Assembly: GCA_964434115.1 (NCBI GenBank)
Contig: CAYSSX010000001.1
Location: 329,459-393,458, forward strand
Reading direction: 5' to 3'
Source of the DNA: an uncultured bacterium
GTDB lineage: Bacteria; Omnitrophota; Omnitrophia; Omnitrophales; Aquincolibacteriaceae
DNA length: 64,000 nucleotides
In this document: one piece after another, positions 3,183 to 59,496 of the stretch
How positions within the stretch are numbered: position 1 is the first letter of the stretch
How the letters are laid out: each line of letters opens with the position of its first letter
The notes under the pieces: generated by a model
What the model was told of the DNA's origin: nothing
What the model saw: the letters and a program-made list of their open reading frames with translations, nothing else
Database searches by the model: none
Translations under genes and position numbers: made by a program

Positions 3183-3190
3183 CGACTTTT

Positions 3191-5840: not shown

Positions 5841-5853
5841 GACAGGCCGGGGG

Positions 5854-6273
5854 TTAATGACGGCTCGGTTCCTGAACAGAAGCGGAAACAGCCGCACGGA
5901 TTTTCTCGGCAGCGGCCGCCAGCTCTTCATTCGAAGCGGACCGCGCTTTGGCAAAATTAAGGTCACCCACTTCAAAAATCGGCACCAGGTGAATGTGCAC
6001 GTGCGGCACTTCAAGCCCGGCCACCATCATGCCTACTTTCCGGCACGGCATGGCTTTGCGGATGGGAATGGCCGCTTTTTTGGCAAACTTCACAAGCTCC
6101 CCCAGCAGGTCATCTTCAAGATCAAAGATGTAATCCACTTCCTGTTTGGGGATGACCAGCGTGTGGCCGGGGTTGATGGGTCGGACATCCAGAAAGGCGA
6201 GGAATTTTTCGTTTTCCAGAATTTTATGACAGGGAACTTCACCCGAAACAATGCGTGTGAAAAGACTCGGCAT
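5854..6273 (-). CDS. HIT (histidine triad) family nucleotide hydrolase
   Basis: Histidine triad HVHIHLVP. N-terminal FTRIVSGEVP and PINPGHTLVIP motifs are present. Confidence 0.9.
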   Translation of the reverse strand: MPSLFTRIVSGEVPCHKILENEKFLAFLDVRPINPGHTLVIPKQEVDYIFDLEDDLLGELVKFAKKAAIPIRKAMPCRKVGMMVAGLEVPHVHIHLVPIFEVGDLNFAKARSASNEELAAAAEKIRAAVSASVQEPSRH

Positions 6274-6305
6274 ACCAAAACTCCTAAAAGGCGCGGGGTT
6301 GGTTT

Positions 6306-6785
6306 TTAATGGTGATGATGCCCGTGGCCGTCAGGACCGTGGGCATGGCCGTGGGCCAATTCCTCGGCTGTCGCTTCGCGGACGCCGGTGATTTCAATAT
6401 CAAAAACAAGGTCCAGTCCCGCCAGCGGATGATTGGCATCCAGCGTGACTTCTTCACCCTGCACTTCGGTGACGGTGTAAACCGGGGCGTCTTCTTCGGC
6501 GCCGCCTCTAAAACGGTCTCCCACCTGAATTTCCTGTCCCGCGGGAAGCTGAGATTTCGCGACGGTCACAATGAGTCCGTCCTGCTTCACTCCGTAAGCT
6601 TCCTGGGCGGCGACGGCAATTTTTTTCTTGGTTCCCGGAGTAAGACCGAGAACTTCTTTTTCAAGACCGGGAATGATCTGACGGGCGCCTTCCATAAAAG
6701 AAAAAGCATCGCCGCCGTTTGAGCTGTCAAGGGTACGGCCGTCGCCGTCAGTCAATATATAATGGAAGGAAATCACGCGAGCCAT
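6306..6785 (-). CDS. slyD: FKBP-type peptidyl-prolyl cis-trans isomerase SlyD with a His-rich metal-binding tail
   Basis: FKBP domain plus an IF insertion-like region. The C-terminus reads HGHAHGPDGHGHHHH. Confidence 0.85.
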   Translation of the reverse strand: MARVISFHYILTDGDGRTLDSSNGGDAFSFMEGARQIIPGLEKEVLGLTPGTKKKIAVAAQEAYGVKQDGLIVTVAKSQLPAGQEIQVGDRFRGGAEEDAPVYTVTEVQGEEVTLDANHPLAGLDLVFDIEITGVREATAEELAHGHAHGPDGHGHHHH

Positions 6786-22200: not shown

Positions 22201-25200
22201 GATCATTTTGTTGATAAACGGGTCCAGAAGATCCGTGTCCTTGGCCCCGGGCTGAAGAATCGAAAGGGCGTATTCGGTTTCTTCACGGATGCTGAGGAAG
22301 AGCTTGGCAATAGCTCTTCCGCCCGCAAGGTCTGACGAAGATTTGGAAATCGCATCAATACTCAAACCGGGATTTTGTTTCTTGAAAAGAACCAGATAGG
22401 CTTTCACCATTCTTTCCATCGCGCTGAAAAGCAGGCGCATATCTTCCACCGTCTTGTCCTGTTTCATCAAAAGATTGATGACTTCCGCATTCAGGTCTTC
22501 AAAGGCTTCGAAGTCGCCCATGAGTTTCCGCGCCGCCGCATTCGACTGCCCCGCAGAACCGGTGCGGGAGAGCGAATAGGTGGTTTCATGAAACACCTGG
22601 TCACGCGGATCAAACTCATAATAGGAAACCGGTTTTTCCGCCGAAACCGAGGGGGTCACCCACGGGTATTGCGGCGCTGACTGAGGCCCCGGTGTGCCGG
22701 CGCCGGTCTGCTGATCAGGCTGCACCAGGTTGGTCCAGAAATCATGAGATGTCCCAGAGCTTTCAGGATCCATGTTCAAGATTCCTGAAAGAGCCGCTGG
22801 AGACACATTCGAATCTCCGGTCGCGCTCAACAAGCCATTATTTAAAGCCTCCCTGACAAGCAGCGCAAGCAGACGAAGCCGGACCGGGGCCGGGAAACCC
22901 GCAATTTTTCCCACAAGTTCTTTTCTCTGCTCCATACCCAGAATCCCGAAGACGCGCGCCAGGGATTCTGCGGCGGCCGCAGAGGGAGAAGCCCCCTCCA
23001 GGCGTTTGAAGAGAAGGTTGATCAACTGAGAGGCTTGTGCCGTATCGTCGGAAAGCACCGCGGGAAGGGCATGCCCAAGAACGCCTTCAACAGCTTCCGG
23101 ATGATTTTGCATGAGAGCCGCTAACTCAGCCCGCTGATTGTCCCGAAGTTCCTTATCAAGATAAGGGTAAATACGCGCCCGCAGAGACGCATCCTGATAA
23201 ATCTCTGCCTGCTCATAGAGATCGTCGATTACCGCGGCACGCTCCTCGGCCGTAAGCCCGGGCAGTGCAATCGCCATCCCTCGGACAGCGCCGGGATTTT
23301 TCAGTTCAAACTGCTCATCAAGGATTAAAAGGATTTCCTGGCGCATCGCGCCGTACCAGGGCGTGATTCCGGCATCAGGCGCAAGCCACCGGGCGAGCAT
23401 GTAACCAAGGCCTTCGTAATAACCTGCCTCCCCGCCTCCAAAACTTTTTAGGTAATTAAAAACCGCGTCATTCTCTGCGGGAATCATCGCCCCTGTGGCC
23501 AGGATCATTGCAAAAAAAGGCAGATCTTTCTCAGTCGAAAAACCGTAGCCCTCAGTGCCCTTGGTGACGGCGGAAACAATCTTGCCGCTCCATTCCAATT
23601 GGGCAGGTTCCGGCAGCAAATCAAACGCCCACGATTTTGCAAAATGGAGCGCTTCAGACACTGCGGCATCCCCGCTCCCCTGCGCCTCCAAAGCCGAAAG
23701 CTCGGCAAGGAATTGTTTGTGAAGAGCCTGCATCTGGTCCACGCTTTCCAAATCAATACCCGCGTCGATTTGAGCTGCGGGGCTCTGTACCGGATTAAGA
23801 CTATCAAAAAGGCTAAGATGACCGGCGGCCGCCAGGACAGCCGGAATGTCGCTTGAGATTTGGCCGGCGACCGCTTGAAGAATTTTCTGCTGCACGTCAG
23901 CGGGCAGAAACGAATACCTGTTTGCCAGAATAGCCAGAGCTTCCGGCTGAACGGAAGAGACCGTCAGCAGGACTTCCGCAGCCCGAAGAAATTGCTCTTT
24001 ATGAATGCCAAAGGCGCCCCCATAGGAATCAAAAATGAGTCCCAATGCCTTGAGCGCATTCTCATCCGCCGTGTTGTCCTGCATCTTTTTGAGGGCACTT
24101 TCAAAAACAGATTCGCGGTCGTCTTTCCGAGGAATTTGATTGCCCAGAAGCAGGTACGCAAGTCCTATCATCATTTGTTTCTCAGGCGCTTTATTGAGAA
24201 TTTTTTTGACCATTTTAGGATCCAGAACTTCCGGAGCGTTTGAACTTAAGAAAGCGGCAGCTTCGAAGACCTCGGCACTGGGGAATTTACTTTCAAGCTC
24301 TAAAAGAAGTGCGTTCTTGAACTCCACCGCTTTGCTTTTCATCGCCGGGGAAAGCTTGGAGAGAAATGCAGCCGCATGGGCCCCTTCAATCGGATATTCC
24401 AATTCCCCGGCTGTAACGAACTCAGAAAGATAATTATCGGCAAGCTTCTTCGAATGCGGATCCAGGTAGTCATACAGAGAGATCAAGGACGAGACAGCAG
24501 CCTGGCGGTCCAATGCATTGGAATGAAGTTTATTCAATTTATGCTTGAGGGTCGTGAAAACAGCGGCTATACGTTTTTGAGGGATTTTGTTTGCCAGCTT
24601 TCCCAAAGCAGCGGTGGCGGCAGCTGTATAGTGTTTATTGTTTTGGCTTGCCAGAGTCAGCAGCTTTGGGACAAGTTGATCCTGCACAATATCCGACGTA
24701 AGCTGAACTAAAAGATCCTGGGAGGGCAGCTTCGCACTCTGAATTGAGAGCGCCGTCAAAGCAGCATTCTGAATGAGCGGCATTTCCTGGTTCTCTTCCG
24801 CTGGCAGGCTGTCACTCCAGGCCTCCCTCGCAATCAAGCCTAATGCGTAAAATGCAAATAAAGCGGCCTGCTCTTCCGGTTTCGAAATTTTTTCAAGAAT
24901 GATTTTAAAAAATTCTGATTTTTCATCAGGGGTCAGGTGATCATAAATTGCTGCGGTATAGGGAAAGGCTGTCAGCTCCTTGCCTTCTTTCACCAACTGC
25001 AGCAGGTCTTTGCGGATACTTTCATTCAAGGCTTCATTATCAGAACTTGCCATGCCCTGTGCCAAAGCGGCCAGAAGCGCCGGGTTCGCAACCAAAGCCC
25101 CGGTTTTGATTTGTGCGGCCAGAGCCTTGTAAGCCGCGGCCCCTTGCGGGGAATCCGCAGAGTCGCCGCTTTCGGTGTGCAAATACAAAACGGCTTCGAG

Positions 25201-28200
25201 CCTGACTTTGGATTCCGGAAAAAAGGCGCCTGCCTTTTTTACCAGCTTTTCAAGACGTTCGTGCAAAGCCTGATCGAAGGTGTATTGAACGTGAGCCAGC
25301 GCCCATAACGCGCTTTTAACCCGCCCCGCATCGGTGTTCTGGCCCTGGGTCAGATTCAAGGCTTCCGCTTCTTTAAAGAGGATCTCCAAGGCTTGCTGAT
25401 AATCGTCAGCTTCCGGATCCATGGTTTCAGCCAGGATGCCTAAAGCAACCAGACCGTCGGGGTTCCCTTTCCGGGCAGCTTTCAAAATGACGGCTGGAAA
25501 GTTTTTAACTATGGCCCGGTGCTCCGGAGTGATAGCTTCCCCATAAGCCATGGCCATACTGATCAAATAGGGATTGAATTCCGGCTTGGACGCGGAAAAG
25601 ACTTTCAGGATTGCAGAGAAATCAATAGGCCATCCTGACCCGGGCGGTTCCCCTTTGGCTTTGAGATCTTTGAGAAACTGCGTCTGCTTGTCAGGGGGCA
25701 GGGCAGGAAAGGACGCGGCCATACTCCGGTTCCGGAAATCTACCATTCCTGCCGGAAGATCAGGTTCCGGCTGGGATGCCGCTGTTTGAAAGGCTTTAAG
25801 AATGTCCTCCTTAGAAGGCCCCTCTTCCGCACCTTGACCCGCACTGGAAGCTAAGGTTTGAGTGAACGGCTTTGCGGGAAGAAACTGATAGGGGGGTAAA
25901 GATTTTTCAGACTTTAATTCACTAAGTTCCGCCGTGACATCCCCCGCGATGATGGCCGCAGCTAAAAGCCCTGCCGAAGATCCGTTCTCAGCGAGAGATC
26001 CAATGGCCGCCACAATGGATCCAATAGCGGAGGACCCCTCGGGCACGAGCCCATAAATTTCAGCCAGGCCTTTGACGGCTTCGGGGTTTCCATCCGAGTA
26101 ACCGTTCAGCAGAGCTTGAACAATTTCCTCCATTCGCTGCTCATCGCCGGCATCAAGGCCAAGCTGCCTGCCGATGACTGCCAGCGCTTGGCCGGAATAC
26201 GGTATCCCCAGAATAAAATAATTAAGGATTCGTGCGTATGCCGCATCCCGCTGGCCGCTTTCCAAAGAACTATAGAGTTCCGCGAGTCCCAAAAGGGCTT
26301 CCGATTCATTCGATTGCATCAATTTTGTGTAAGCCGAAGAAAGGTCATCGGGATCACCGGCAATTTGAGCCAAAGCGCCGAGTGCGGCGAGCGAACCCGG
26401 ATATTCCGATTGACTGACTTCATAAACAATTTTTTTAATCGACTCCACTTTCGCACTGCCATTCTCGGCTTTAGCATAAACCTTGGCCATGTGAATCAGT
26501 CCGAAGAACGCTCCCTCTTTAAAATTATCTGCCCAGAGTTTGACGATGTCGTAAACGCTGTCTCTTTGAGCCGGCGAGAGGAACTCAAACAGAATTCCAT
26601 AGGCGTGAACGGCCGCGTTTCCTTCAACCGTGGTTTGACTCAGTTTCGATTTCAGGAGATTGAGAATATCCTGCTGCGCCAGCTCACTCGAAGACGGGTA
26701 AATATGCCCCAAAGCCTCGATTGCGAGCACATCCCCGGCCTGGGCCTTTTCCATAATCTGATTGCGATACTTGTCCCGGAAACCCATAAGAAACTCCTGT
26801 TTGACAAGCTTGTAAAAAACAGGCTTCTTTCCTTGCTCTGGGCCCCATGGAGGTAAAGGCGTCAAAACGTCTTCAGGCGCCTGCGTTCTCAGGGCAAAAG
26901 CCATACTGATCGCAATGCGTGCAGCCCGCTTTGCGGGGAGAACCTCCCCCGCGAGTTTTTCACTCAAGAGCGATGACACCTCGGAGCGTTTGGACACCGG
27001 CAGGGCGGCAAACATTTCCGCGAGGCCGAGCAGTGCCTGTTCCTGACGGGCGCTGAAACTTTCTGACCGGGCCTCAGCCATAACCTTGAGATAGATTCTC
27101 TCGGCCGCTTCAGGGGCATTCGGGGTCAGCCTGGAATAAATCCGGGCGATGCTCCTTATTAAAAAAGGTGCGGCTGCCGAGTTCGAGTCAATGAACCCCC
27201 AAGCATCCGAAAGGTCGGTGTTCTCGCTCGATAATGCAGCCAGGCTGTAGGCAAGCCCCGGAAGGTCTTCGGCTGTACTCATAGCTTGGGTGATTTCCGT
27301 CAGGAGAAAAGCAGGCAAAGCCGAAGGCGGATACTCGTAAAAAACTCCGAGGTAGCGGGCAGCTTCAAGCTGGCCAGTCTTAGAAAGCTCAATCAATCCC
27401 TCGATGAGCTGCTTTTTCTCTTCAGGGTTCAACGCCTCAGAGTCAGCTTCGAAAATATCGGCGAGCGCGTAAAACGCCTCATGCTTCCCCATCTTGGCCT
27501 GCTGAAAAAGATATCCGATGACATCACTGGCATAAATCCCGAGCGAAGAGTAAGCAATCCCCAGCGTGCGGATATTTCCGCTGCTCAGAAGAAGCGCCTG
27601 TGTGGTCGCCGGATTCTCACCCGACGGAAGACCGCCGCGCAGCACCCAGCCAAGGGCCTGCAGTTCGAGATCGTTTTCCTGTAAAGCGCCGGGCTGAACC
27701 TGCGTGTAAGACGACTTCAAATCTTCGATGAACCCACTCCGGAGTTTCTTGAGCTCCGTATAGCCGGGCGGCAGTCCTTCGAAGACCGGATCGTCTTCCG
27801 CGCGGAGTTCAGAACGGGCGGAAGCCGTATCCAAAACAGGCGCATCCGTCCCCGCCATTCTTGTTTGGGCGAGGTCGCTGGCCTGAATCGCGAGTCCTTC
27901 AGGGGTCTGAGTGATCCGGATCATGGGCCCGCCCCAGCGCGAGCCCGGTTCAAGAGCACCTTGCACAGCATCCACGGGACGCGCCGCGGGCCTGAGAAGC
28001 TGCGCAATGTTCTGTTCATTCAAAGTGCCGTTCTGCTCCAGACGCTTTAACTGTTCGATGAACTGTTCGATTTTTTCCAGCGCCGCGCTTGGCCCGCTGT
28101 CCTTGGATTTTGAAATTTCATCGAGAAAGCGCGTGTAAGCGCCGGCTTCGTCAAGCCTCCCCTGCGAGGCCAAGTCACGGAGGATTTGATCACGCCAGCG

Positions 28201-41079: not shown

Positions 41080-41922
41080 ATGACACCTCCAACCCAGCGT
41101 AACAACATCCTTATTGTCGATGACGAACCTGAAATCCGGGAAGTCATGGGCATGATGCTGTCTGAACACGGCTACCGAATCCGCACCGCGGCTGACGGCA
41201 TTGAGGCCCTGGAGCTGATCAAGGAAAAGGCACCGGATCTTATTCTCCTCGACATGAACATGCCCCGCATGGGCGGTATTGTCTTCTACCACAATATTGC
41301 CAGCAGCTATGACGGCAGTCCCAAATACCCGGTTTTGGTCATTACCGGACGGGCGGCACTGGAGCAGGTTTTCAAAGACTTCAAAATTGACGGGTTTATC
41401 GGAAAACCTTTTAACTTCGAAGACCTTCTAGCACTGATTGAAAAGACCATGGTCAAGCACTACGGCGGCGGGATCAAGTCCGATCCCCCTCCGGAAGATC
41501 TTCCGAAATCCAAAAAGAAAAATCCGCGCATTCTCGCGATTGACGATGACTCGGACCGCTTTCACGCGATTGTCATCAGTTTTATGAATGCGGGTTACGA
41601 AGTCCTGAACGCCAAAAACAACCGCATTGCCCTGCATTCCGCGACCTTTGAAGAGCCGGACGCTATTTTCATGAAGCTGAAAAACCCGGCGCCGGATTCC
41701 CCTGAATCCCAGCTTGCGGCCGCGATCCGCCAGATTGAAAAAGCCGCCGCGATCCCGCTGGTCTTTTACCCTGCTGGCACTTCTCCCTTTTTTCCTTCGG
41801 TCATTGAGTACCTGACCAAAACGATTTCCAACAGCCGGGTAATGCCTGCGGGCGATCCGGATCTTCTGCTCCGGGAATTCGAAAAGATTCTTTCCGAAAG
41901 ACGTTCCGCGCCTCCGCTTTAA
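41080..41922 (+). CDS. Response-regulator receiver protein (one canonical REC domain plus a degenerate second REC-like domain)
   Basis: The first REC domain (ILIVDDEPEIREV...DLILLDMNMPRMGG) has the phospho-acceptor Asp. The second REC-like region (RILAIDDDSDRF) lacks it. No output domain. Confidence 0.75.
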   Translation: MTPPTQRNNILIVDDEPEIREVMGMMLSEHGYRIRTAADGIEALELIKEKAPDLILLDMNMPRMGGIVFYHNIASSYDGSPKYPVLVITGRAALEQVFKDFKIDGFIGKPFNFEDLLALIEKTMVKHYGGGIKSDPPPEDLPKSKKKNPRILAIDDDSDRFHAIVISFMNAGYEVLNAKNNRIALHSATFEEPDAIFMKLKNPAPDSPESQLAAAIRQIEKAAAIPLVFYPAGTSPFFPSVIEYLTKTISNSRVMPAGDPDLLLREFEKILSERRSAPPL

Positions 41923-41928
41923 ACCTCT

Positions 41929-42480
41929 TCAGAAATCTTTTAAAAAACGGACCGCGGCTTCCGGATCTTCCGCCGCGTGGTAAAAACTCCTGTATTCAGC
42001 GCGCGCGAAATTCTCAGTAATCATCTTCTCAAAAAAAACCAGCAGCGGATCAAAGTACCCCGCCGTATTAATCAAAACCACCGGCTTCGCGTGGTACTTC
42101 AGCTGTTTCAGGGCCAGCGATTCCGCAAGTTCATCCAAGGACCCCAGCCCCCCGGGAAGACAGACGATCGCGTCTGAACATTGCTGCATACGGGCCTTGC
42201 GTTCATGCAGGTCCCGGGACACGACAAGTTCGTGGCAATCCCCATACGCCATGCCTTTTGTGTTCATCTTTTCAGGAATCACGCCGGTGATCCGCGCCCC
42301 GGCCTGAAGCGCGGCTCTTGCCAGGATTCCCATCAAGCCCGAATCCGTGCCTCCGAAAACAAGCTCGCATCCTTCACGTCCCAGGGTTTCGCCCAGCTGT
42401 CGCGCCGCGGTTTGATAGACCGCCGCGACTTCAACGCTGGAGGAACAGAAAACGAGTACTTTTTTACCTTTAAGATTCAT
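41929..42480 (-). CDS. LOG family protein (cytokinin riboside 5'-monophosphate phosphoribohydrolase-like, TIGR00730)
   Basis: GGTDSGLMG and PGGLGSLDEL (PGGxGTxxE-like) motifs. Confidence 0.85.
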   Translation of the reverse strand: MNLKGKKVLVFCSSSVEVAAVYQTAARQLGETLGREGCELVFGGTDSGLMGILARAALQAGARITGVIPEKMNTKGMAYGDCHELVVSRDLHERKARMQQCSDAIVCLPGGLGSLDELAESLALKQLKYHAKPVVLINTAGYFDPLLVFFEKMITENFARAEYRSFYHAAEDPEAAVRFLKDF

Positions 42481-42516
42481 CGGAAGTCCCGGGGGTTTTG
42501 AACGCTGGGGATTTTA

Positions 42517-43323
42517 TCAAACAGGAATAGGCTGCGCGGCAAATTTCTGCATCTTTTTATACAGTTCGTAACCGGATCCAAACACAATGAGCTGGTTTTC
42601 CTTGAAGCTCTGAAGCGCTGAGTTCTCCATATCCTTGGGACAGACCACAAACAAAGGGATGCCTTTGGTCTCGTCCTTGCCCTGCATACCGGTGTACAGC
42701 TTAGGCACATTCATAATGCCTTTCAGAGTGTGGTAATGACACATCACGAAATCCGGTAAAAGCTTTCTCACTTCATCAAGCCCCTGGGCATCGCCCTGGG
42801 CCGTGAAAACGTTGTAGCCTTCCGCGCGAAGGGCGTCGGTCACCTTGCCCGTGACCTCTTCGTCATAGCCGGCGACCACCACTTTCTTTCCTTTTCCCCG
42901 GCTTGAAGCGGCCTGAGCGTCCGCGGCTTCCTTTTTCTTGTCCACAGGCAGGTCCGGATCAAAGTTCAGGGCGTGTGCCACCTTCGCCACAAGCTCCTGC
43001 GGCTCAAACGGCTTGGAGATAAAAAACGCCAGCTCCCAGCTGGTGAAAAAATCTTTCATGCTTTTACGGGAAGACATCACGATAATCGGAATCGAGCGGT
43101 GCGCGGGGTCCTGCTTGCGGATTTTCTGAACAAAATCATACCCGGTCATTTCCGGCATCAGCACATCCAGAATAATCAGGTCAGGCACTTCCTGGGAGAC
43201 TTTCTCAAAGCCTTCCGTCCCATTCGTGGCCGTAATCACTTCATAGCCCTTGGCTTTCAGCACCGAATAAATCTGGGTGATGAATCCCCTGTCGTCATCA
43301 ATCACAAGAATTTTTTTGGTCAT
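42517..43323 (-). CDS. Response regulator (REC domain plus an unassigned C-terminal domain)
   Basis: KILVIDDD...DLIILDVLMPEMTGYDF receiver domain. The gene sits immediately downstream of the hybrid histidine kinase (43333..46221), which suggests one operon. Confidence 0.8.
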   Translation of the reverse strand: MTKKILVIDDDRGFITQIYSVLKAKGYEVITATNGTEGFEKVSQEVPDLIILDVLMPEMTGYDFVQKIRKQDPAHRSIPIIVMSSRKSMKDFFTSWELAFFISKPFEPQELVAKVAHALNFDPDLPVDKKKEAADAQAASSRGKGKKVVVAGYDEEVTGKVTDALRAEGYNVFTAQGDAQGLDEVRKLLPDFVMCHYHTLKGIMNVPKLYTGMQGKDETKGIPLFVVCPKDMENSALQSFKENQLIVFGSGYELYKKMQKFAAQPIPV

Positions 43324-43332
43324 CGTCTCCGC

Positions 43333-46221
43333 CTAGGCTGCCTTTAAAGAATCCTTGAGCCGTTCCAGCTGCGCTTTGACTTCTTCTAAAAGCACGGGGG
43401 CTTCGTCAAGGCGCTTTTCCTCGGCCGCGGTTTCAAGCCGGAGCGCGGCTTCGCTTAAAATCCGGGCCCCGATATTGGCCGCGGAACCCTTCAGCGCGTG
43501 AGCTTCACATTCCACGACCTCGACTTTTCCGGAAGCCAGCCCTCCGCGGATTTTTTCAATCTGCTGCGGCGCGTCCTCCAGAAAAATCCGGATCACGTCC
43601 TGGTACAGCCCCATGTCGCCCCCCATATGGGAAAGGCCCGCGTCGCGGTCCAGAACATCCGTGTCGCTGGAAGATGTATCGGTGCTTTTCTCATTAACTT
43701 TTGCGGGGTTTTCGATTCCCAGGCCGCAGGCCGCCTCGATCACTTGAAAGAGTTTGGGCGGCTGCACGGGTTTTGAAACATAATCATCCATGCCGGCATC
43801 CAGGCATTTTTCCCGGTCGCCTTTCATCGCGTTCGCAGTCATAGCCACAATCGGCACCCGCTTGCCGGTCTTTTTCTGATGCGCTCGGATGCGCCGAGTG
43901 GTTTCGTAACCATCCATCTCCGGAAGCTGAATATCCATCAGGATCAGGTCAAACTCCTGTTCCTCAACCAGCTTCAGGGCCTTAAATCCGTCCTCCGCAA
44001 TGACGGAGCGGTACCCTTGCCGGTCCAGAAGCCTCTGCGCGACCAGCTGGTTGACGGCATTGTCTTCCACCACCAGGATTTTCAAACTCGGGCGCACGGG
44101 TTTGGGTTTTAATTTCTGTCCGCCCTCGGCGCCTTTGCCCGGATCCGCGAGCACGTTCAAGACCGTGTCCAAAAGCCGGGACTGCGCGATCGGCTTTTTC
44201 AAACAGGCATCGACTCCCAATTGCTGGGCGCGGGCGCTCTCTTCGGGGCGCACGGCCGAAACCATCATAATGATTTTCATATTCTTACAGGCCGGTCTTG
44301 TCCGCAGTTCCTCCACCAGCATAAAACCGTCCATCTCCGCCATTCCGGAATCAATAATGCAGAAATCAAAAGACGATTTTCGCCCGGCTTTTTCATCCAC
44401 CTTCGCAAGCGCCTGCACCCCGTTGGCCACGGCTTCGGGCTTCATGCCCCAGCCTTCGCACATTTCGCGCAGGATGTGCCGGTGAGTCCCGTTGTCTTCC
44501 ACCACCAGCACCGCGAGATTTCGGATGTTGACGTCGCGGACCATCGTCAAACGGCGGCCGCCGGCTTTGCCGGGCTTGAATTTCGCCCGGAAGTGAAAGG
44601 CGCTGCCCGGGCCTCCGCCTTCGGTCTTCATGGCTTCACACGGGCTCTCCACCCAGACTTCCCCGCCCATCATCCGGATCAGTTTCGCGGAAATGGCCAG
44701 CCCAAGCCCCGTGCCTCCGTAACGCCGCGACATGGAATTGTCCGCCTGCTGAAACGATTCAAAAATAAGTTTCTGTTTATCCTCCGGAACACCGATACCG
44801 GTGTCCATCACGGAAAAATGAAGGGTCATCTCCTGATCGTTGGCCTGATCCAGCCCGACCTTGAGCACCACTTCCCCGCGTTCCGTAAATTTCAGGGCGT
44901 TGCCGACAAGGTTGATCACAATCTGCCGGAGCCTGCCCGGATCGCCTTCCACGGAATCGGGCACATGCGGCGGAATATGGCAGGCCAGTTCAAGCCCCTT
45001 GGCCTGAGCGCGGACCGCCAGAGTGGTCAGCGTGTCCCCAAGCGTGTCGCGCAGGCTGAACGGAACCGAGTCCAGCGTCATTTTTCCGGCTTCGATTTTC
45101 GAAAAATCCAAAATGTCGTTGATGATCCGGAGAAGGGAGTCCGAAGAAGTCTTGGCCACCTGCACGTATTCACGCTGTTCGGGCGTGAGTTCCATATCCA
45201 GCAGAAGATCGATCATGCCCTGAATCCCGTTCATCGGCGTACGGATTTCGTGGCTCATGCTGGCCAGGAACTCGCTCTTGGCGCGCGCCGAAGCCTGCGC
45301 CGCTTCCTTGGCCTTGTGCTCGATCTCCGCCTGCTTGCGCGCCGAGATGTCTCGGACCACGCCGATCGACCCGGTCTGTTTCCCCTGCGCATCCTTTAAG
45401 ACACTGATCGAAATCTCCACGTCCAAAGCTCCGCCGTCACCGCGGATCATCTGGGTTTCAAAATGGTGGTGCTGCTGGGTCTTGTGCTCGCTGAAGGAGC
45501 GGATTTTTTTCCACTCTTCAAGGGGGTAGAGTGCGCGGAGCGGAAAATCCTTGAGCTGGTCTTCTTCCAGCCCCAAAAGGTCCTGAAGCTGTTTGTTCCA
45601 CGAAACCAGCCGGTCGTCGGCGTCCGCCACCATAATCGGAACCGCGGAATTCTGAAACACCCGGCGGAATTTTTCCTCGGAATCCCGAAGCTGAGCCTCG
45701 GTGCGCTTGCGCTCGGAAATATCGCGGATAATCCCAATCGCGCCGGTGACCTTGCCTTCCTTGTTTTTGAGAACACTGATCGAGACGTCAATGTCGAGAA
45801 GGTCGCCGTTCTTTTTAATCATCACGGTTTCAAGGTGGTGGCGCATGCCTGAGGAACGGATGTCATAAGAACGGATCCGTTTCCATTCCTCGGGCGGGTA
45901 GAGTTCCCGGATCGGCTTGAGGGTGAGGTCTTTGGCGGTCATGCCCAGCATATTTTCCGTGAATTTATTCCAGGAGATCAAACGCTCTTTGTCGTCTACC
46001 ACCGTAATCGCGGCCGCGGAATTTTCAAACACGGTCCGGAACTTTTCTTCAGAAACACGCAGGGAGGCTTCAATCTGTTCGTGACGGGCTTCGAGTTTTT
46101 CGAGGGTTTTAATTTTTTTCTGAAGCTCGGCGATCTGCTTAAGAAGATCTTTGCTGCTTTTTTCCTGCTGCCCCATAGGACTCTTCCGGTTAATGGGTTG
46201 GGGTTTTTTACGGTTAACCAA
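43333..46221 (-). CDS. Hybrid sensor histidine kinase: 2×PAS, HisKA, HATPase_c, 2×REC, C-terminal HPt
   Basis: H-box [15 protein letters not shown]1 and G2 boxes: [17 protein letters not shown] and [13 protein letters not shown]. Two receiver domains with the Asp in IIDSGM and [13 protein letters not shown]. HPt motif [11 protein letters not shown]. Confidence 0.9.
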
Positions 46222-46321
46222 AGTGTAGCAGAGGAAAAAGCAAAGGCCATAGGGAGGGCGTAAATTTCCCGATTATGGCGGCCGGAAAAAGGGAGTTATT
46301 TAAGAGGTGAAAAAAAGGCCT

Positions 46322-47374
46322 TTAGACAGGTGCCGCAAGGGCCCGGGACACGAGAAGGCTGTTGAGATGGTGCCCTTCTGAAAAGAGGTCCGCGAGGTAG
46401 CGGTCATACTTGTCGGACTTGGTGGTGCGGATCAAGACCCCTTCCGGGGCTTGCAGCCGGGCTTCCAGAAACTTCTTGGCCCGCCGCCCCGCCTCACTGC
46501 CCTGCTCAGGGGCATTGATGCCGCGCAGGCGCAGTTTCTGGCGAGTGAAAACTCCGAACCCAAGATCCACCTGCATCCAAACCGTGTCCCCATCCACCAC
46601 CCGTTCACAGAAGGCCCGGTAAAAATACAGGTCCGCCTCGCGGGCACCGTTGACACGGCTCATGGAGTAGTCGGCAGTGCCTGTGCCGCCTGTTTTTTTC
46701 TGGGAATAAACAATCTCTTCTGAAAAAAAACGTTTTGAGCTGGACGGCAATTCAAGGTACGTGGAAAAACCAAGGTCAATCAAAAGGCCGTCAGGGTTCG
46801 CGCCCGGCGCCTGGCTCCGGAAAAGCCGGTAGCGGTAGGGTTCCCCGGGTTTGAGTTTCGTCAGCTTCCCCTGGGGTTCGTCCGGACGGCCGGAAGAGAG
46901 CTTCCTGTCACCCGCGGCGGCCTCTTCCAGACGCCGGCTGCTCCAGCCCCATTCTTCGGCCTGGGTTTCAAGTTCTTTGCGAGCGCCTTCATCCTTGACC
47001 GGCAGCAAGGCCCGGTAATGACTCCAGGTCAATTTTCCCGGCGCCGGGAAATTCTCGTACGCGCGGGCAAATTGCAGCGCGTAATAAAGCAGGGTCTGGT
47101 TGGTGTTCAGGTCCTCGGACAAGCGGCTCAAAACTTTTTTTCCGTAATCGCCCCGCTCCTGACTTTGCAGGACATGCGCGTCAATCAAGCGGCCCACTTC
47201 CCAATACGTCCGGGTCTTTTCCTGCTCCACGGCTTCCTGCGCGCGGCGGCGCCCGGATTCAAGGGCCTCGCCCACCTCTTTTTTCAAATTGGCGTAGGTA
47301 CGGACATCCAGATTTTTTGAACTTGGGCTCAGAGCTTTATTTTTACGGGAAACTGCGGGCAATGCGGGCATCAA
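46322..47374 (-). CDS. DUF1016 (YhcG) N-terminal domain fused to a thermonuclease (staphylococcal-nuclease-like) domain
   Basis: The N-terminal half carries YWEVGRLIDAHVLQ...YGKKVLSRLSEDL, typical of the DUF1016_N domain. The C-terminal half carries the SNase motifs VVDGDTVWM, LRLRGINAPE and KSDKYDRYLADL. Confidence 0.55.
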   Translation of the reverse strand: MMPALPAVSRKNKALSPSSKNLDVRTYANLKKEVGEALESGRRRAQEAVEQEKTRTYWEVGRLIDAHVLQSQERGDYGKKVLSRLSEDLNTNQTLLYYALQFARAYENFPAPGKLTWSHYRALLPVKDEGARKELETQAEEWGWSSRRLEEAAAGDRKLSSGRPDEPQGKLTKLKPGEPYRYRLFRSQAPGANPDGLLIDLGFSTYLELPSSSKRFFSEEIVYSQKKTGGTGTADYSMSRVNGAREADLYFYRAFCERVVDGDTVWMQVDLGFGVFTRQKLRLRGINAPEQGSEAGRRAKKFLEARLQAPEGVLIRTTKSDKYDRYLADLFSEGHHLNSLLVSRALAAPV

Positions 47375-47490: not shown

Positions 47491-48393
47491 TTAGGCCGCG
47501 CTCTGAATCAAGCGGTTGGCGGAGAACTTGAAGGCTATTTCGAGAACCAGACGCGTGATACGGAGACGGCTCCCCTGCATCTGGAGAATCCCCGGCAGAA
47601 ACTCGGACAGTTTTTTGAGACGTTCCGCCGTGATCCGCGTCTTCCCGTCTTCGGCCAGCATCCGGGAAAGCAGAATCACCACGGGCAGCTCCTCACCGGC
47701 TTCGACTTCCGAAAGGACCGCGCGTCCGGAGAAATCGGAAAGCAGTTCCGCGTCCGGGAGACCGTAGACCAGGGCGCTCCCGAACTCATGCAGGTAACCC
47801 GCCAGGGATGCCGACAAAACCGCCTCGTTCATCTCCACGGGCGTTGCCACGCCCAGACTTCCCGCTTCCTGGAAAAAATCTTTCACGGCCGGGTCCTCCA
47901 TTTCATGCTCGAGCACCATCACCTTGACTTTCGCGGTCAACTGGGAAGGAAACGCGTCCCGGAGGGCTCCGAGTGTTCTTAAATAATTCAGCAGCCCGGC
48001 GCGCGCCTTTTCACTGCGGGGCAGCCGGTAGCCAAAAGCAAAAACGAGTTTCTTGGAAGTGTCCGCGCTCAAAGCCTTACGCACATCCCTTTCAAAACCG
48101 GCGAGCAGTTCCTGATAAAAAGCCGTTTGGGCCGTATCGTAATCGGGGTGCACTTCCTGGACATCCTCGGCCGCGGCCCGCCGTGGTTCCGATCCCGCGC
48201 TGAGAAGACTCGCGTAATGGGGATCCTGTCCCTGCTCACGCAAAGCCGATTCTACGGCCGGCATTTGACGCTGCGCCTTTTCGGCCAGCACGGCGGCTGC
48301 CTCCCGCCGCAGATTTCTTCCAAGGGCCAGGTCTTCAAGAACCGTCCGAACAACGTCCTGAAGCGCCTCGGCGCCGGTGTCTCCGCCGGACAA
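47491..48393 (-). other. Conserved C-terminal module of giant protein 2 (~300 aa, ends ...RLIQSAA)
   Basis: Paralogous to 9361..10203 (see that feature). Confidence 0.75.
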
Positions 48394-51300
48394 GCGCAGT
48401 TCGGAGCGCGCCTTGGCCTGCTCGGATTGCTTTTTCAACGCTTCGTAAATCTCCCGGTGTTCATCCACCAGCAGTTTCAGACTCCCCGAAAGAAGGCCGT
48501 GATAATCCTGGGTCAGGGTTTCAAAAAACGGCATGCTGAAGAAAAATCCCCGGGAAATTTCATCCAGGTTAATCGCCAGAGAAGCCTTTTCCTCATCATC
48601 CAGAATGTAGGCGTAAATCGTGACCCACTCCCGGTTCACCAGCCCGCCCTGAAATGATTCCCGGGGAAAACCGTTGGGCGGCGAAAGCAGAAGCAGCTTT
48701 TCGGGTTTGATTTTCAAACGGATTTCCTCTTCGGTTTCGCGGATCGCGGCCTGAATCCTCGACTCTCCAAGGTTCACGTGTCCGCCGGCCGAGACTTGAA
48801 GTTTTCCCGGCGACATATCTTTATTCATGCTTCTTTCCTGTAAAAAAAGCTTTCCGTTTTTGTCAAACACATAGACCTGCGTGACCGCGTGCCACTCGCC
48901 TTCCTGATGCGCCTTCAGCTTGCTCTGTCCGACAGCCGTAAGAAACTCTCCCGTGGCCGGATCCACGTACTGAAGAATCTCATCCGCGTGCGTGTACAGC
49001 TGATGAAAACTGCGGTCCAAAGTTTCCGTTTCCGGATGATCCGGAAGAGCGCGGAGCTCAGCGCGGCTGGCCTGGGAAAGCGTGCCTCCTGCGGCAATAT
49101 TCGAAACGCTCAAACGCCGGGAATTTCCCCGCTTCGGAACCGGACCGCCGCCCTTGCCCTTGGGCCTTACCACAGCGTTCGGAGAAAGCGCGAGCTCTGT
49201 GATGGTGAAAACACCCTTGGGCGTTTTTCCGGCTTTTTCAATTTCGAAAACCAGTGCGATTTTTGCGGTCTTCACGCCTTTCAAGGGCAAGGAGGAAAGA
49301 TCCAGCACCAAGGCTTCCCCGGGCTTCGGGGCACTGACTTCTAGGGTTCCAAGAACTTTTCCTGCGGGAGAATCGTCACTCAATTCAATCTCGAACTTGT
49401 CCGGAAGCACCGACTCTTTGCTAAATGCGATGCGGAGGGATTTAAAGGCTTCCGCGTCAGCGGCCTTGAAGTTACCGGTAAATCCACTGAAGCGGTTCTT
49501 GTTATCAAGGCTGAAAGCGATCTGGATCGAGCCGTCCGTATTTTTCTTTTCCATGTTATCCGGGGCCTTTTCAAGGTTCGTAAACATCGCAATCCCGGTA
49601 AACGCGGCTAAAAGGTCCAGGTCTTTACGGTTCACGGCCGCGTAGCGCCGGTCAAAGGCCTGAAACTCGGCGGCAATGTCGGGGTAATCTTCCCACTCCG
49701 CCACCACGGCGCGGAGAAACGGCGCTCCAAGCGCTTCAAGAATGAGACCCTGATTCATATAAATGCGTTTTTCGTGATACGGCGCGCCGGTCTTGGGATT
49801 ATAGGAATCCCCAAGCCCCCACAATTCACGGTAACCGTTGCGCTTGGTCACCGCGCGCACAAAGGCCTCAGCATTGTCCACGGATTCCGGGACATCGCTA
49901 AGCAGCGCCAGAAAGGGTCCTGCCGCCACGAGCACCGAGGCATCTTTAAGACCGTAGACAGCATAGGAATCCGCTTTCTCTCCGCTGCCAGGCGCCGACA
50001 CAGCCGCAACGTGCGCTCCTTTTTTGGCCACGGCCCGCGCGGCCTGAAAGTAATTTTTAGAACTGACCGCAAGCACGGCAGGCGAAACCTTGGCCGGGTC
50101 TAAAAACTGCAGGCCTTCGTATTCGGTCCAGGCGGATAAATTGGCGTCTCCATTGCCGATCGGAACATCACCCGCCGTGCCGGCCGCTTCCACCCATTCG
50201 TGACGCAGTTTTTTGAGAACTTCCAGTCCCTGAGCGCGCCGCGTCTTGAAATCCTTTTCCGGGTCGCCAAGGACTTCCGGCATCAAGAAGAAATCCCTGG
50301 CCTCCGTATGACGGTTATCAATAAAGGATTCGTTCAGAGTCAGGCTTTTATCTGCCGGATTCACAAACACCTGGCTGCGGAGCCTGCCCTCTTTATCAAG
50401 AAAGCCGCGGTAGTCCGCCTTGGCAAGCAAGGCTTCGGCTTTTTTCACAATCGTTTCATCTTTAAGGCCGCGCACGTACCCGCCTTTGAAAACTTCGGCA
50501 AGCAATTTTAGCCTTACGTGCGTCAGCGCCATATCGTAGGCCGCATAAGCCACACCTGTCTGGCCTTCTTTGCCGGGGATTTTCATCAGCTCCGTCTTAA
50601 AAGGCTTCGCGGCACCTTCTTTTTCATAAACAAGCGTTTCAGGCAATAGCCCGGTGTTCACGCCGTTGATGCGCAGGCCGAACTGATCCACCATTTTTTC
50701 AAACATCTCAAGCGATTTTGTGATTCTTTCCGTGACCTTTTTGGGATCACTCAGGGCTCCCCGGTCGCCAATGGGAAAATTGGAATGGGACAAAGCCGCG
50801 AGCAGGTCTGCACTCCACATAAACCCGATGTCCGCGGAACGAAGCCATGTTCCCACGGGATTGCGCGGCGCTTCACCCTGGTTGTAGGGCATTCCCACCG
50901 GAGAACGCATGCTCAAAAGACTGATCTGCGTATCGCGGTAAACCGGGCGCAGCGTCATGCGCCGGAGAAACGGATTCACGGGAAGTTTGATCTGACGCGG
51001 CTGATCTGCCGGAGCCTTTTTCTGCTGAGCCGCGGCAGGTCCTGTCATTCCCGTCAAGGCCGAAAGCCCCGTGGCCGTGGCCGATACCCAGCGGATAAAA
51101 TCCCTGCGCGTGGGATCCTGGCCCTGGCTCCTTAACTCCGAACGGTGCGGAAACACTTTACCCAGGACCCAGTCCGGATTTCTCAGGATTCGGGACCGGG
51201 TTTCCTCCAGCCTGCGGCCGGCCGCCGAAAAATGGGCATGAAGATCATTGACCGTCTTCTGCTGCAAAAGTCCGCTTTCATTAAGCACGCCGTGCGACAT

Positions 51301-54300
51301 CAATCCTTGAAGAATCTCAAGCGAGCGCAGGACACTGGCCCTGTCGCGCCGTTCTGTCTGGATCCGCCAGTCCAGAAACTCAAGAATATCTCCCGGGTGA
51401 GCGGGGTTGGAATCATACGTTTCCTCTTCATCGAGACGTTCCAGAAGCCTTAAATACGCAAGCAGTGTCTCGATTTTCTCCTGCGGGACTTCGCTCTCTT
51501 CATACCAGGCGGCGATAAATTCACGAGGCAAAGACTGATAGGGCACCACAGCGTTCAGAAGCGTATTCCAGCGCCTTCCGGTTTTCTCGAGGGTTCTTGC
51601 GATGCGTTCCCGAACCTCTCTCATTTCCCGGACCGATGTAACCACCTGGGCACTGTACTGAAAAAGACCCATAACCAGAAGGACCAAAACTGCCGCGCTG
51701 TAGAATTCAAATCCCTGAACAATCATACTGACTGCCGTAAGCGAAAGGCCTGCGGACAGAGCAAGCCCCGTAAGTAAACCGGGCCGCATGACCTGCACTT
51801 TTAAAAACCGGTCGCGGTCCCTCAGCACGTGCTCCATGGCATCCTGCCACTGATCATCCAGCGTCACGTATGAAAAGTCCTCCCGCTCTGCACGAAGCTC
51901 CGAACGCACAGGCGCTTCTGACGGCAGATCAATCGTGAACACCGTGCCCTCGCCAGTTTTGGTTTCCACGGAGATCTTTCCGCCCAGGCTGTTTTCAATC
52001 GATTCTTTCGTGAGCGCCAAACCAAGACCTGAGCCCCGGCTGCCTTTGGTGGTGAACAACGGTTCAAAAATCCGGGGCAGGACATCCTCGGGGATTCCGG
52101 TGCCGTTATCCCGCACGGTTATGCGGAGCGCAAACTGACTTTCTTCAGAATCCAGGGATTCCATTTTGAGGGTAATGCGGCGGGGGCGTTCCGGCGGGTT
52201 ATCTTCCGTCGCGTGCGCCGCGTTAATCACAAGATTGCGCAGCGCGCGGTAGAGCTCAAGAGGATAGGTCCGGATAAAAACAAAGCTCCGCGTGGTTTCA
52301 CCTTCCACCACGGCCTCCCCCGTGCTCTCAAAACCGGACACAGCATCTCGCAGCAAGGTCAAAGGACGCAGCATTTTAAGCGCTTCAACCTCAAGCCCCA
52401 AGGGCTGCGCGGTGAATTGATAAACCCAAGCCGACTGGGTCACAAGCTGATCTGCCGCTTTCTCGGCCTTCGGGTGGGAAGATTTCCGGATGCGTTCGGC
52501 CTCGACTTGAATTTTATCCGCCGCGAAAAAATCCCGAAGATCCTGAAGGAGCTTGAGAACCACGGCCTCCTTTGCTGGACCCGGATTCATGCTGCGGGCC
52601 GATGAATACCGCGATTTGAGAGAGGCGTAAGGCTTATAGAAATCCGTTCCCATCACTTCTTCGACCTTGGAAGCGTTCAAAGGATCAATTGTCGAATCCA
52701 CCAGCTCCAGCAGAGACATAATGTTTCCAAGCTCATGAAGGATTTGCCCGCTCGGAAGTTCCCCTTCGATTCTCACCAAAGCTTCAAGCGGCGCGGCCTG
52801 CGCTGAATCCGGGTCGCGGATCTCCAGCTCTTCATCAATCCGGAAAGCCAGGTCCTTGGCAAAAGCCTTTTCAGCCTGCGCCGTCAAGGTTCCGTAATTT
52901 CCTAAAATGAACGCGGTCAAAATCATGGAAGCGACATCAAACCCCGCCCCTCTGGCCAAGGCATTCAAAGCAGTTTCGACGACTTTCGGGTCCGCGTTTT
53001 GATTAAAGATAAGGCTGATGAGCCGGTCCAGCGCCTCCTGGTTCGCGGCAAGCCCCCCAATGGCCCGGACCGCGGAACGCGCCACCTGAATCGTTCCCGG
53101 CTGCCGCAAAATTTCAGACAGCGACGCGAGATCGCCTTCCTTTTCAAAAACCTTGATCAGTCCCATCAGGATCAGCGCGGGCACTTCGTCCTTCCGGGCA
53201 ATCTCCCGCAGAACCGGCAGGGCTTCCGCGCGTTCCGCCGCGGGAAACTCCGCGAGTGTGCGGATCGCGGCGTAGCGGACTTTTTCGCTGGGGTGAATAA
53301 GCCCAAAAATAACCACTTCGAACAGCGTGTGATGAAGCTTGAGAGGGTTTTCACCGGACAAGACAAAACCGATCCGGTCCATCAGGCGGACAAGACTCCT
53401 TTCCACCCGGGGCCCGTCGCTCATCTGCCAATCATCCAGGTCTCTGACCATCGGGCCTTCTTTGATATTTTTCGGAACAAAGGTTTCATAAATCGTCAGG
53501 TGATCAAAAACTTCTTCGTCCTGACTCACCGCGTCATTCAGCGCGCTGACACGCCTCACGATTTCCGGATCCGTAATGTCGTCGCCTTCTTCCGCGGCCT
53601 TCCGGGCAAGCTCAATCAAATGCTGATTCCGGTCCTGCTCCGAGCGAAGTTCGGAGCGGGGCTTGGGCGTCTCGTCTCTCGGAAATACCTGCAGGCCGGA
53701 CGCCCGCGTGTCAGAAGAAAACTGCATTCTCTGCAGGTCCACGGTCATTCCCTGGATCTGACCATCCGGGTAGCGCACAAGACTGCGGACGCCGTTTTTT
53801 CCAAGGCGCCGGATAAGGGACCTGTGAAAGGCCTGGGCTTCGGGCGTTTTGTCGATGCCCCACTCCCCGCGGTTATTCACCGGACCGATCTGAAAAGTTT
53901 TAAACCCCTGATTTTTGAGCATCTGGAAAAGCCGCCGGGCCAAAACTATTCCCAGGCCGCTGCCGCGCAAAGCAGGATTCACGTACAAACCGTTCCCCTG
54001 CAGACTCAAGTTGTGCGTGTCGGCTTGAAAGGCCCAGGCCGCGGCAGGCTGCCCGCCCAGGTACGCGATAAACACATCATTTTCAATGTCCCAGCGAATC
54101 GACCCATCCGGATCCGCGTAACGGTCAAAAAATGCCCAGTCAGAAAAAAGATCGGATTTCTCCGCCCGCCCCAGCACAGGGTAAGGCGCTCTTAACCCGG
54201 CCAAAAAGAAAGGTTCATCCTGCGTAAAATCACTGCCCATCAGGCGGAACTCAACGCCGCTGCCGCGCACCGTTCTGCGCAGGGCCAGCCTTGCCTCTTC

Positions 54301-59496: not shown

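Follow-up and report, generated by a model that had tools for sequence, protein, structure and literature searches.

Repeated R-[S/A]-E-x-R motifs divide a 4001-residue Omnitrophota protein into self-contained modules and suggest a cleaved polyprotein

Introduction

Do the giant proteins of Omnitrophota act as single chains, or are they cut into pieces? The question is raised by a stretch of 64,000 nucleotides from contig CAYSSX010000001.1 of an uncultured Omnitrophota bacterium (assembly GCA_964434115.1), here called the window, which carries two giant open reading frames (ORFs), giant 1 and giant 2. The cargo of giant 2, the subject of this study, had been read from the sequence as a chain of enzymes on one membrane-threaded polypeptide, in a combination not known before (the original prediction). 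Our analysis shows that a short repeated motif divides giant 2 into protein-sized modules, and we consider it somewhat more probable than otherwise (about 0.55), judging from sequence patterns, that giant 2 is a polyprotein cleaved after this motif.

Several of the domains concerned are known from giants of the same phylum. A 2026 preprint describes HATPase_c (136 proteins), GNAT (93 proteins), methyltransferase, HAD, and HD domains as one co-occurrence module, and lists NUDIX and HEAT in "multi-enzyme" Omnitrophota giants, in which transmembrane (TM) segments are common (10.64898/2026.06.07.730766). Since HATPase_c, GNAT, NUDIX, and HEAT thus recur in these proteins, the domain combination of giant 2 is not new, contrary to the original prediction. 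Giant 2 shares with the multi-enzyme giants the phylum (as judged from relatives) and a long ORF tiled with unrelated Pfam domains; however, the published studies cover proteins of at least 10,000 residues (the 2026 preprint) or larger, whereas giant 2 has 4001. Cleavage of such proteins by C39 or S8 peptidase domains was speculated on in a 2023 preprint, which states that the cleavage points are unknown (West-Roberts et al.; 10.1101/2023.11.21.568195). Neither an R-S-E-x-R motif nor a conserved N-terminal head is mentioned in the text searched of the two preprints, and full-text searches of the literature gave nothing relevant on the motif or on polyproteins in Omnitrophota. The cargo of giant 2 hence appears to be a smaller member of the known Omnitrophota giants, its motif-delimited, head-led architecture being an undescribed variant.

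Results

Punctuation motif

Eight R-[S/A]-E-L-R motifs split giant 2 into a head (residues 1–679) and eight modules, S1–S8, of 199 to 688 residues (Table 1). The motif always has this form in the window, the form in the wider family being R-[S/A]-E-x-R. Across the six frames of the window, giant 2 has eight copies of R[SA]ELR and giant 1 has seven, with none elsewhere. The Arg, Ser, Glu, and Leu codons of the motif vary synonymously, Arg being written as CGT, CGC, CGG, AGG, or AGA; hence, selection acts on the peptide rather than on DNA or RNA, and a nucleic-acid signal or a hidden stop codon is ruled out.

The two giants share only their N-terminal ~560 residues (30.6% identity, E 2e-62). A profile of this head retrieves 8787 representative proteins among 1.84 billion, 4597 of them at E ≤ 1e-30; in all of the best 150 of these 8787 matches the head is N-terminal, and the lengths of these 150 proteins range from ~600 residues (mostly truncated fragments) to ~8000. 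We recovered 44 genomic loci with the head, nearly all from metagenome-assembled genomes of Omnitrophota; none is close to the giants of the window (at most 31% identity). A head search of a further collection of 5.8 billion proteins gave one partial protein, labelled Elusimicrobia, and no self-match, so giant 2 is not in that collection.

Within this family the motif is strongly over-represented. R[SA]E[LVMI]R is observed 124 times vs. 1.5 expected in the 44 related loci together with both giants, and 597 times vs. 7.5 expected in 150 family representatives, an excess of about 80-fold; the family also uses the variants RSEAR, RSETR, RSESR, and RSEQR. In 144,000 residues of other long reading frames (at least 150 residues) from the same loci the motif is absent except in three frames, which belong to further giants cut off at the 5' end of the locus as fetched.

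The placement of the motifs is equally regular. The first one stands just behind the head (median residue 669; 83% between residues 600 and 800), only 6 of 1058 motifs fall inside the first 600 residues, and the median distance between consecutive motifs is 309 residues, which is the size of an ordinary bacterial protein. The flanks are unconserved linkers rich in Ala, Ser, Pro, Gly, and Glu. The residue directly after the motif (position +1) is enriched in Ser, Thr, and Ala, and avoids Pro (0.37-fold), which is enriched 1.2- to 2.3-fold at the neighbouring linker positions; such avoidance at +1 only is what cleavage behind the second Arg would be expected to produce. No Pfam domain of giant 2 spans a motif. 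The HATPase_c domain of S4 ends three residues before motif 5, and standalone kinases likewise end with HATPase_c.

Giant 1 provides two further observations. A PPDK_N domain, the ATP-binding domain of pyruvate phosphate dikinase (residues ~3704–3857, 18241..18702, minus strand; E 2.5e-38), stops just a few residues short of the RSELR at residue 3863. It is also the sole Pfam match, at the C-terminal end, in a stretch of 3192 residues between two motifs (residues 671–3862, 18226..27801, minus strand) that has neither a motif nor a TM helix; its first ~3000 residues match nothing in Pfam, and its length far exceeds the median module of 309 residues.

Modules as independent proteins

Module S6 begins with what the original prediction had called a Tat (twin-arginine translocation) signal, and inspection of the sequence supports the features of such a signal: TRRDFIRW, an uncharged h-region, and AAA are found at residues 2796–2823. 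The signal starts seven residues after motif 6 and contains an uncharged stretch of 20 residues followed by AAA-Q; unless the chain is cleaved, it is internal. The region also matches TIGR02811, although weakly (E 0.007). A homologue of S6 in another head-bearing protein (P0023; 36% identity, E 1.5e-68) is likewise bounded by motifs and has its Tat signal two residues after the motif. The family sample contains 17 complete Tat-like signals, of which six are found no more than 30 residues behind a motif, vs. a background of 5.6% (P = 2e-4), and two more are at protein N-termini; one motif is followed at once by a lipoprotein signal with the lipobox LAGC. Apart from the P0023 module, S6 has no relatives in the word-indexed search or in a metagenome scan with the alignment of both, and the PDB sequence-profile search with S6 gave noise only.

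The head-bearing ORFs of two other loci have clear Tat-type signals 55–56 residues after RSEVR (L034, residue ~2785, GRRNFLKMAG...; L037, residue ~3106, GRRGFLRAAG...), an offset that suggests a pro-piece or a second, unrecognised site. The idea that N-terminal signal-anchor helices are generally enriched behind motifs was also rejected, the effect not being significant.

Duplications respect the same boundaries. In giant 1, three paralogous modules of ~370–400 residues (35–49% identity) lie in tandem and align from residue +1 after RSELR. The C-terminal module of giant 2, S8, recurs in seven other family members, where it ends 11–13 residues short of the C-terminus; an eighth copy (L003) runs past the end of the fetched locus. 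In these relatives the S8-type tail starts 28–59 residues after a motif (8 of 8). The structural model of S8 (predicted local distance difference test, pLDDT, 81.5) gives generic Rossmann-like matches only, and the tails of giant 1 and giant 2 show no detectable similarity.

The seven complete S8-type tails (P0047, P0061, P0049, P0148, P0102, P0149, and P0124) all end with x-M-A before the stop codon, the endings being STMA, AQMA, KQMA, SQMA, ATMA, ARMA, and AVMA; giant 2 ends with QSAA.

Domains of the cargo

The sequence strings quoted in the original prediction were all found in giant 2 at the positions given there, and much of its domain reading is reproduced by profile searches. Between the motifs there are indeed several enzyme-type domains and hydrophobic blocks; a first GNAT domain and a zincin context found no support.

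Profiles confirm HATPase_c in S4 (PF02518, E 6e-23 to 7e-24, 81.9–84.9 bits vs. a cutoff of 26.4); alignment of this domain to the solved histidine kinases 9p6i and 3a0t shows its N, G1, F, and G2 boxes. It is preceded by the predicted HEAT repeats, which match HEAT_2 (E 5e-12). As in sensor histidine kinases, the catalytic ATP-binding domain with its four boxes is at the C-terminal end of the module; unlike in these kinases, there is no HisKA/DHp profile match, no known type of sensor domain is present, with HEAT repeats instead, and the candidate H-box lies ~167 residues upstream of the N box. This candidate, LHELGN, aligns with LHDLKN of a homologous module (P0055) and is absent in two others (P0079 and P0122), and no HisKA family matches giant 2 in Pfam even at E ≤ 10. 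The earlier reading of S4 as having no detectable H-box is uncertain.

The Nudix assignment of S7 is confirmed as well (NUDIX profile, E 9e-13, 48.8 bits vs. a cutoff of 21.1). The box, GHVNLGESRIQAAIRETEEEIRL, is near-canonical rather than canonical: it keeps G, E, RE, and EE of GX5EX7REUXEEXGU, with Thr at the first U and Arg for the final G. S7 reaches no NCBIfam equivalog cutoff; the closest, IDI type 1 and YfcD, are both far below theirs. The second of two proposed GNAT domains, in S3, is retained with a marginal score (Acetyltransf_1, 24.3 bits vs. a cutoff of 20.7, with RGSGLG at residues 1844–1849; Acetyltransf_6, 22.6 bits vs. a cutoff of 22), and the only Pfam match in the N-terminal part of S3 is a non-significant TPR_14 (E 0.34).

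The first proposed domain of this kind, called GNAT-like and falling in S1/S2, finds no support, as Pfam gives no family there at E ≤ 10 and NCBIfam none related to GNAT at E ≤ 1; the sole NCBIfam match in S1/S2 at E ≤ 1 is a spurious succinic semialdehyde dehydrogenase in S2 (E 0.15). Neither S1 nor S5 has a family match in Pfam or NCBIfam. Kyte–Doolittle hydropathy supports the 2-TM hairpins of S1 and S5. For the block of about four TM helices claimed in S2, it confirms the hydrophobic character with two strong helices, the remaining one or two being weak. A zincin-like context for the HEMTH behind this block finds no support: no peptidase family in Pfam or NCBIfam matches, and the chance expectation for one HExxH in giant 2 is 0.084. 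S2 has no relatives in the word-indexed search and none in the metagenome scan, and is hence an orphan, with neither homologues nor relevant profile matches. HEMTH was also considered as the site of a processing protease and rejected; it has no profile support, and giant 1 has no HEMTH.

For annotation, the GNAT, kinase-type ATPase, Nudix, and Tat-exported modules are probably separate gene products rather than parts of one exotic multi-enzyme. The GNAT, Nudix, and ATPase modules may still represent a toolkit of small-molecule- or nucleotide-modifying activities, as originally proposed. Giant 2 has unusually many recognisable domains for the head family: two head-bearing relatives, P0023 (4675 residues) and P0051 (3451 residues), match no Pfam family at E ≤ 1e-5, which indicates that most cargo of the family is unannotated.

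Head

In a model built by AlphaFold on 14 sequences (pLDDT 77), the head has an alpha/beta core with a parallel sheet, split by a helical insertion of ~300 residues. As modelled, the head of ~620 residues resembles the TIKI/TraB/ChaN/EreA/RRSP hydrolase superfamily, whose members include HopBA1, Bcr135, and ChaN (PMC6254334). The catalytic 2His/2Glu set of RRSP consists of Glu3900, His3902, Glu3930, and His4030, with His85 and Glu113 as counterparts in Bcr135 (PMC6254334). By pattern, Asp78 and His80 of the head correspond to Glu3900 and His3902, and the spacing of 28 residues between His80 and Glu108 is that of His3902/Glu3930 and of His85/Glu113. Because these invariant or nearly invariant residues (Table 1) match the pattern and spacing of RRSP and Bcr135, the modelled head is probably an active member of this hydrolase superfamily, which includes site-specific endopeptidases.

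The head differs from the TIKI/TraB/PrgY/ChaN/erythromycin-esterase/HopBA1/RRSP superfamily in the insertion, in the Asp in place of the first Glu, and in having no profile match: searches of Pfam (including TraB, Cofac_haem_bdg, and Erythro_esteras), NCBIfam, and PDB sequence profiles gave none, and Foldseek of the model against PDB gave no significant match. Both giants of the window, and at least 89 of the 142 family representatives tested, begin with a Sec-type signal (basic n-region, h-region of ~15 residues, AxA).

Table 1. Features of the two giants. Positions are those of the window, residues those of the respective protein (aa, amino acids); head roles follow from the model and residue patterns.
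Feature	Residues	Positions	Strand	Description
Giant 2 ORF	4001 aa	47491..59496	-	open reading frame over 4001 codons
Giant 2 Sec-type signal peptide		59383..59496	-	
Head module	1-679	57460..59496	-	Sec-like signal peptide aa 1-38; predicted TIKI/TraB/ChaN/EreA-like alpha/beta core
Head Asp-Ala-His	78-80	59257..59265	-	candidate catalytic (D/E)-x-H; D in 150/152, H in 152/152 heads
Head Glu108	108	59173..59175	-	28 residues after His80; 152/152 heads
Head Gly-Gly-Phe-His	472-475	58072..58083	-	second GxxH; 152/152 heads
Motif 1, RAELR	680-684	57445..57459	-	
Module S1	685-883	56848..57444	-	acidic linker, 2-TM hairpin aa 711-762 (57211..57366), soluble tail of ~120 aa
Motif 2, RSELR	884-888	56833..56847	-	
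Module S2	889-1508	54973..56832	-	soluble part of ~330 aa, hydrophobic block, HEMTH, helical C-terminal part
S2 hydrophobic block	1227-1321	55534..55818	-	
S2 HEMTH	1328-1332	55501..55515	-	
Motif 3, RAELR	1509-1513	54958..54972	-	
Module S3	1514-1946	53659..54957	-	N-terminal part with no recognised fold, GNAT acetyltransferase domain
S3 GNAT domain	1732-1873	53878..54303	-	RGSGLG motif
Motif 4, RSELR	1947-1951	53644..53658	-	
Module S4	1952-2530	51907..53643	-	HEAT repeats aa 2061-2182, then HATPase_c
S4 candidate H-box, LHELGN	2253-2258	52723..52740	-	
S4 HATPase_c	2412-2527	51916..52263	-	histidine-kinase-type
Motif 5, RSELR	2531-2535	51892..51906	-	aligns with RSETR behind HATPase_c of P0079
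Module S5	2536-2784	51145..51891	-	2-TM hairpin aa 2573-2619 (51640..51780), helical soluble part
Motif 6, RSELR	2785-2789	51130..51144	-	
Module S6	2790-3477	49066..51129	-	twin-arginine signal aa 2790-2824 (51025..51129), domain of ~650 aa
Motif 7, RAELR	3478-3482	49051..49065	-	
Module S7	3483-3696	48409..49050	-	Nudix domain aa 3538-3647 (48556..48885), box 48715..48783
Motif 8, RSELR	3697-3701	48394..48408	-	
Module S8	3702-4001	47494..48393	-	recurrent C-terminal tail: helical bundle, Rossmann-like alpha/beta domain
Giant 1 ORF	6816 codons	9361..29811	-	second giant of the window
Giant 1 Sec-type signal peptide		29716..29811	-	MRRVVSLALIFCLVPFGQVPSAQA-QS
Giant 1 tandem modules	5358-6531	10219..13740	-	each opens with AAF[ST]x[ED]QK[SA]V; HEAT repeats in the region

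Polyprotein processing and its alternatives

The reading we prefer, polyprotein processing, would work as follows. A conserved head of ~620 residues would be followed by variable cargo, made of self-contained modules on unstructured linkers with R-[S/A]-E-x-R, and cleavage behind the second Arg of every motif would yield the head and eight products. S1 and S5 would be released as small hairpin membrane proteins, S2 as a polytopic membrane protein, S3 as a GNAT acetyltransferase, S4 as a HEAT protein with a histidine-kinase-type ATPase, S6 as a Tat-exported protein, S7 as a Nudix hydrolase, and S8 as the conserved C-terminal module, each product reaching its own compartment by its own signal. 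The head would be the obvious candidate protease; this is the weakest step, and we hold it with lower confidence than processing itself.

Several points weigh against this reading. We infer cleavage from sequence patterns. The TIKI superfamily includes esterases and haem binders as well. The Tat and lipoprotein signals and the ATP- and acetyl-CoA-dependent cargo imply that processing starts from the cytoplasm; however, given the Sec-type signals, the head is probably exported, and a periplasmic head could not be the cytoplasmic processing enzyme. Single-TM helices are not enriched at module N-termini overall (15 observed vs. 11.9 expected), and the hydrophobic blocks fit even numbers of TM segments (a pair in each hairpin and about four in S2, only two of these being strong), which would also be compatible with one threaded chain. 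The conflict in topology has three possible solutions: the head may act before or during export, a separate protease may cut the motifs in trans, or the whole array may be exported and processed outside, similar to the delivery of MARTX effectors.

One alternative takes the even TM numbers at face value: giant 2 would stay an intact, membrane-anchored multidomain protein, with the hairpins and the polytopic block tethering the enzymes and the motif serving as a docking or recognition element in the linkers. The three hydrophobic blocks would then leave all soluble domains on one face of the membrane, and published accounts treat Omnitrophota giants as single membrane-associated products, noting cleavage as possible; moreover, the case for cleavage consists of sequence signatures. 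We nevertheless regard an intact chain as unlikely. It would leave the conserved internal Tat signal and the internal lipobox with no function, and, if the head is Sec-exported, would carry ATP- and acetyl-CoA-dependent domains out of the cytoplasm. Avoidance of Pro solely at +1 fits a processing site, not a docking motif, and the same holds for the protein-sized spacing and for duplication units that start at +1. The behaviour of the motif across the family, the internal Tat signal, and the duplications thus argue against the one membrane-threaded polypeptide of the original prediction.

The third of the topological solutions may also be taken as an explanation in its own right, namely an array of effectors that is exported via Sec and cut by the head in the periplasm or outside the cell, with the GNAT, Nudix, ATPase, and membrane-hairpin modules acting on or inside the cell of a host or prey; the internal export signals might also be read there. 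Other pathogens use GNAT and Nudix enzymes as effectors, relatives of the head in the TIKI superfamily include the effectors RRSP and HopBA1, and Omnitrophota have been proposed to be predators or parasites with giant proteins acting on target cells; the Sec-like signal of the head fits as well, and placing protease and sites in one compartment would remove the conflict. However, no secretion-system signal, RTX repeat, or C80 peptidase is found among the Pfam and NCBIfam matches, the threading of 4000–6800 residues with even-numbered TM hairpins through Sec is problematic, the reported cargo of the family consists mostly of ordinary metabolic enzymes (giant 1 has PPDK_N), and a Tat signal functioning in a foreign cell is speculative. 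This makes the exported array a rather improbable explanation. Finally, the module sizes resemble those of ordinary genes, which would fit an artefact: separate genes joined in assembly, a pseudogene, or a genetic code read wrongly, the motif then standing at gene junctions. Such an artefact is hardly credible: stretches of 12 and 20 kb are free of stops in the standard bacterial code, the Arg codons of the motif vary, so that no single codon is a hidden stop, no start codon stands at +1, and the same architecture recurs in thousands of independent assemblies. Giant 2 is a genuine gene.

Comparison with known systems

Polyprotein processing of giant 2 would have a bacterial parallel in MARTX toxins, which are also large chains with a mosaic of unrelated effector and enzyme modules, released at short inter-domain sites; the MARTX effector RRSP belongs to the fold superfamily to which the head is assigned. 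Among the Pfam and NCBIfam matches, however, giant 2 lacks RTX repeats, the C80 cysteine protease domain, and a type I secretion signal. The TIKI-fold domain of MARTX toxins belongs to the cargo and does not do the processing, and the cleavage motif differs from that of the giants, MARTX sites being Leu-based. The second parallel is provided by viral polyproteins, such as those processed by flavivirus NS2B/NS3 and picornavirus 3C: one ORF, protein-sized products, a short conserved site with a basic P1 and a small P1', a protease within the chain, and signal or TM segments inside it that route the products. Here, the likeness is an analogy only, as giant 2 is a cellular gene and the protease fold differs. 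Extended to the whole family, it would mean that Omnitrophota run a virus-like polyprotein strategy at scale, with thousands of chromosomal genes, each coding for a site-specific N-terminal TIKI-fold endopeptidase and a string of unrelated enzymes, membrane proteins, and Tat- or lipoprotein-exported proteins, and with cleavage after R-S-E-x-R; we offer this wider proposal as a tentative one, with less confidence than processing of giant 2 itself.

The motif would make the choice between a single chain and cut pieces testable for Omnitrophota giants, since, together with the head, it predicts exact neo-termini and names a candidate enzyme to assay. It also gives a rule for dividing giants into tractable units for the prediction of structure and function. 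If processing is true, the motifs would provide the giant proteins of Omnitrophota with their first concrete cleavage points, and the cargo of giant 2 would amount to eight independent proteins from one ORF.

Genomic context

Giant 2 is flanked by ordinary chromosomal genes, namely those for ferrochelatase, inositol-1-phosphate synthase, and two-component systems. The annotated neighbours of giant 1 and giant 2 (a DUF1016/SNase nuclease, two-component proteins, inositol-1-phosphate synthase, haem enzymes, a PAP2 phosphatase, and DUF4202) include no evident protease gene. Downstream of giant 2, the region 41080..47374 holds the gene for a DUF1016_N + SNase nuclease, a PAS-HisKA-HATPase-2xREC-Hpt hybrid kinase, two response regulators, and a LOG/lysine-decarboxylase-like gene.

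Directly upstream of giant 2 is the gene for myo-inositol-1-phosphate synthase (60181..61293, minus strand), separated from the start of giant 2 by 684 bp with no ORF of at least 150 residues (59497..60180). Rfam and tRNA scans of the window, this interval included, were empty. The autoprocessing protease of MARTX is activated by inositol phosphates; a link between the synthase neighbour and processing of giant 2 would be speculative. The neighbouring ferrochelatase is an exact match to a Logan contig from SRR16481187.

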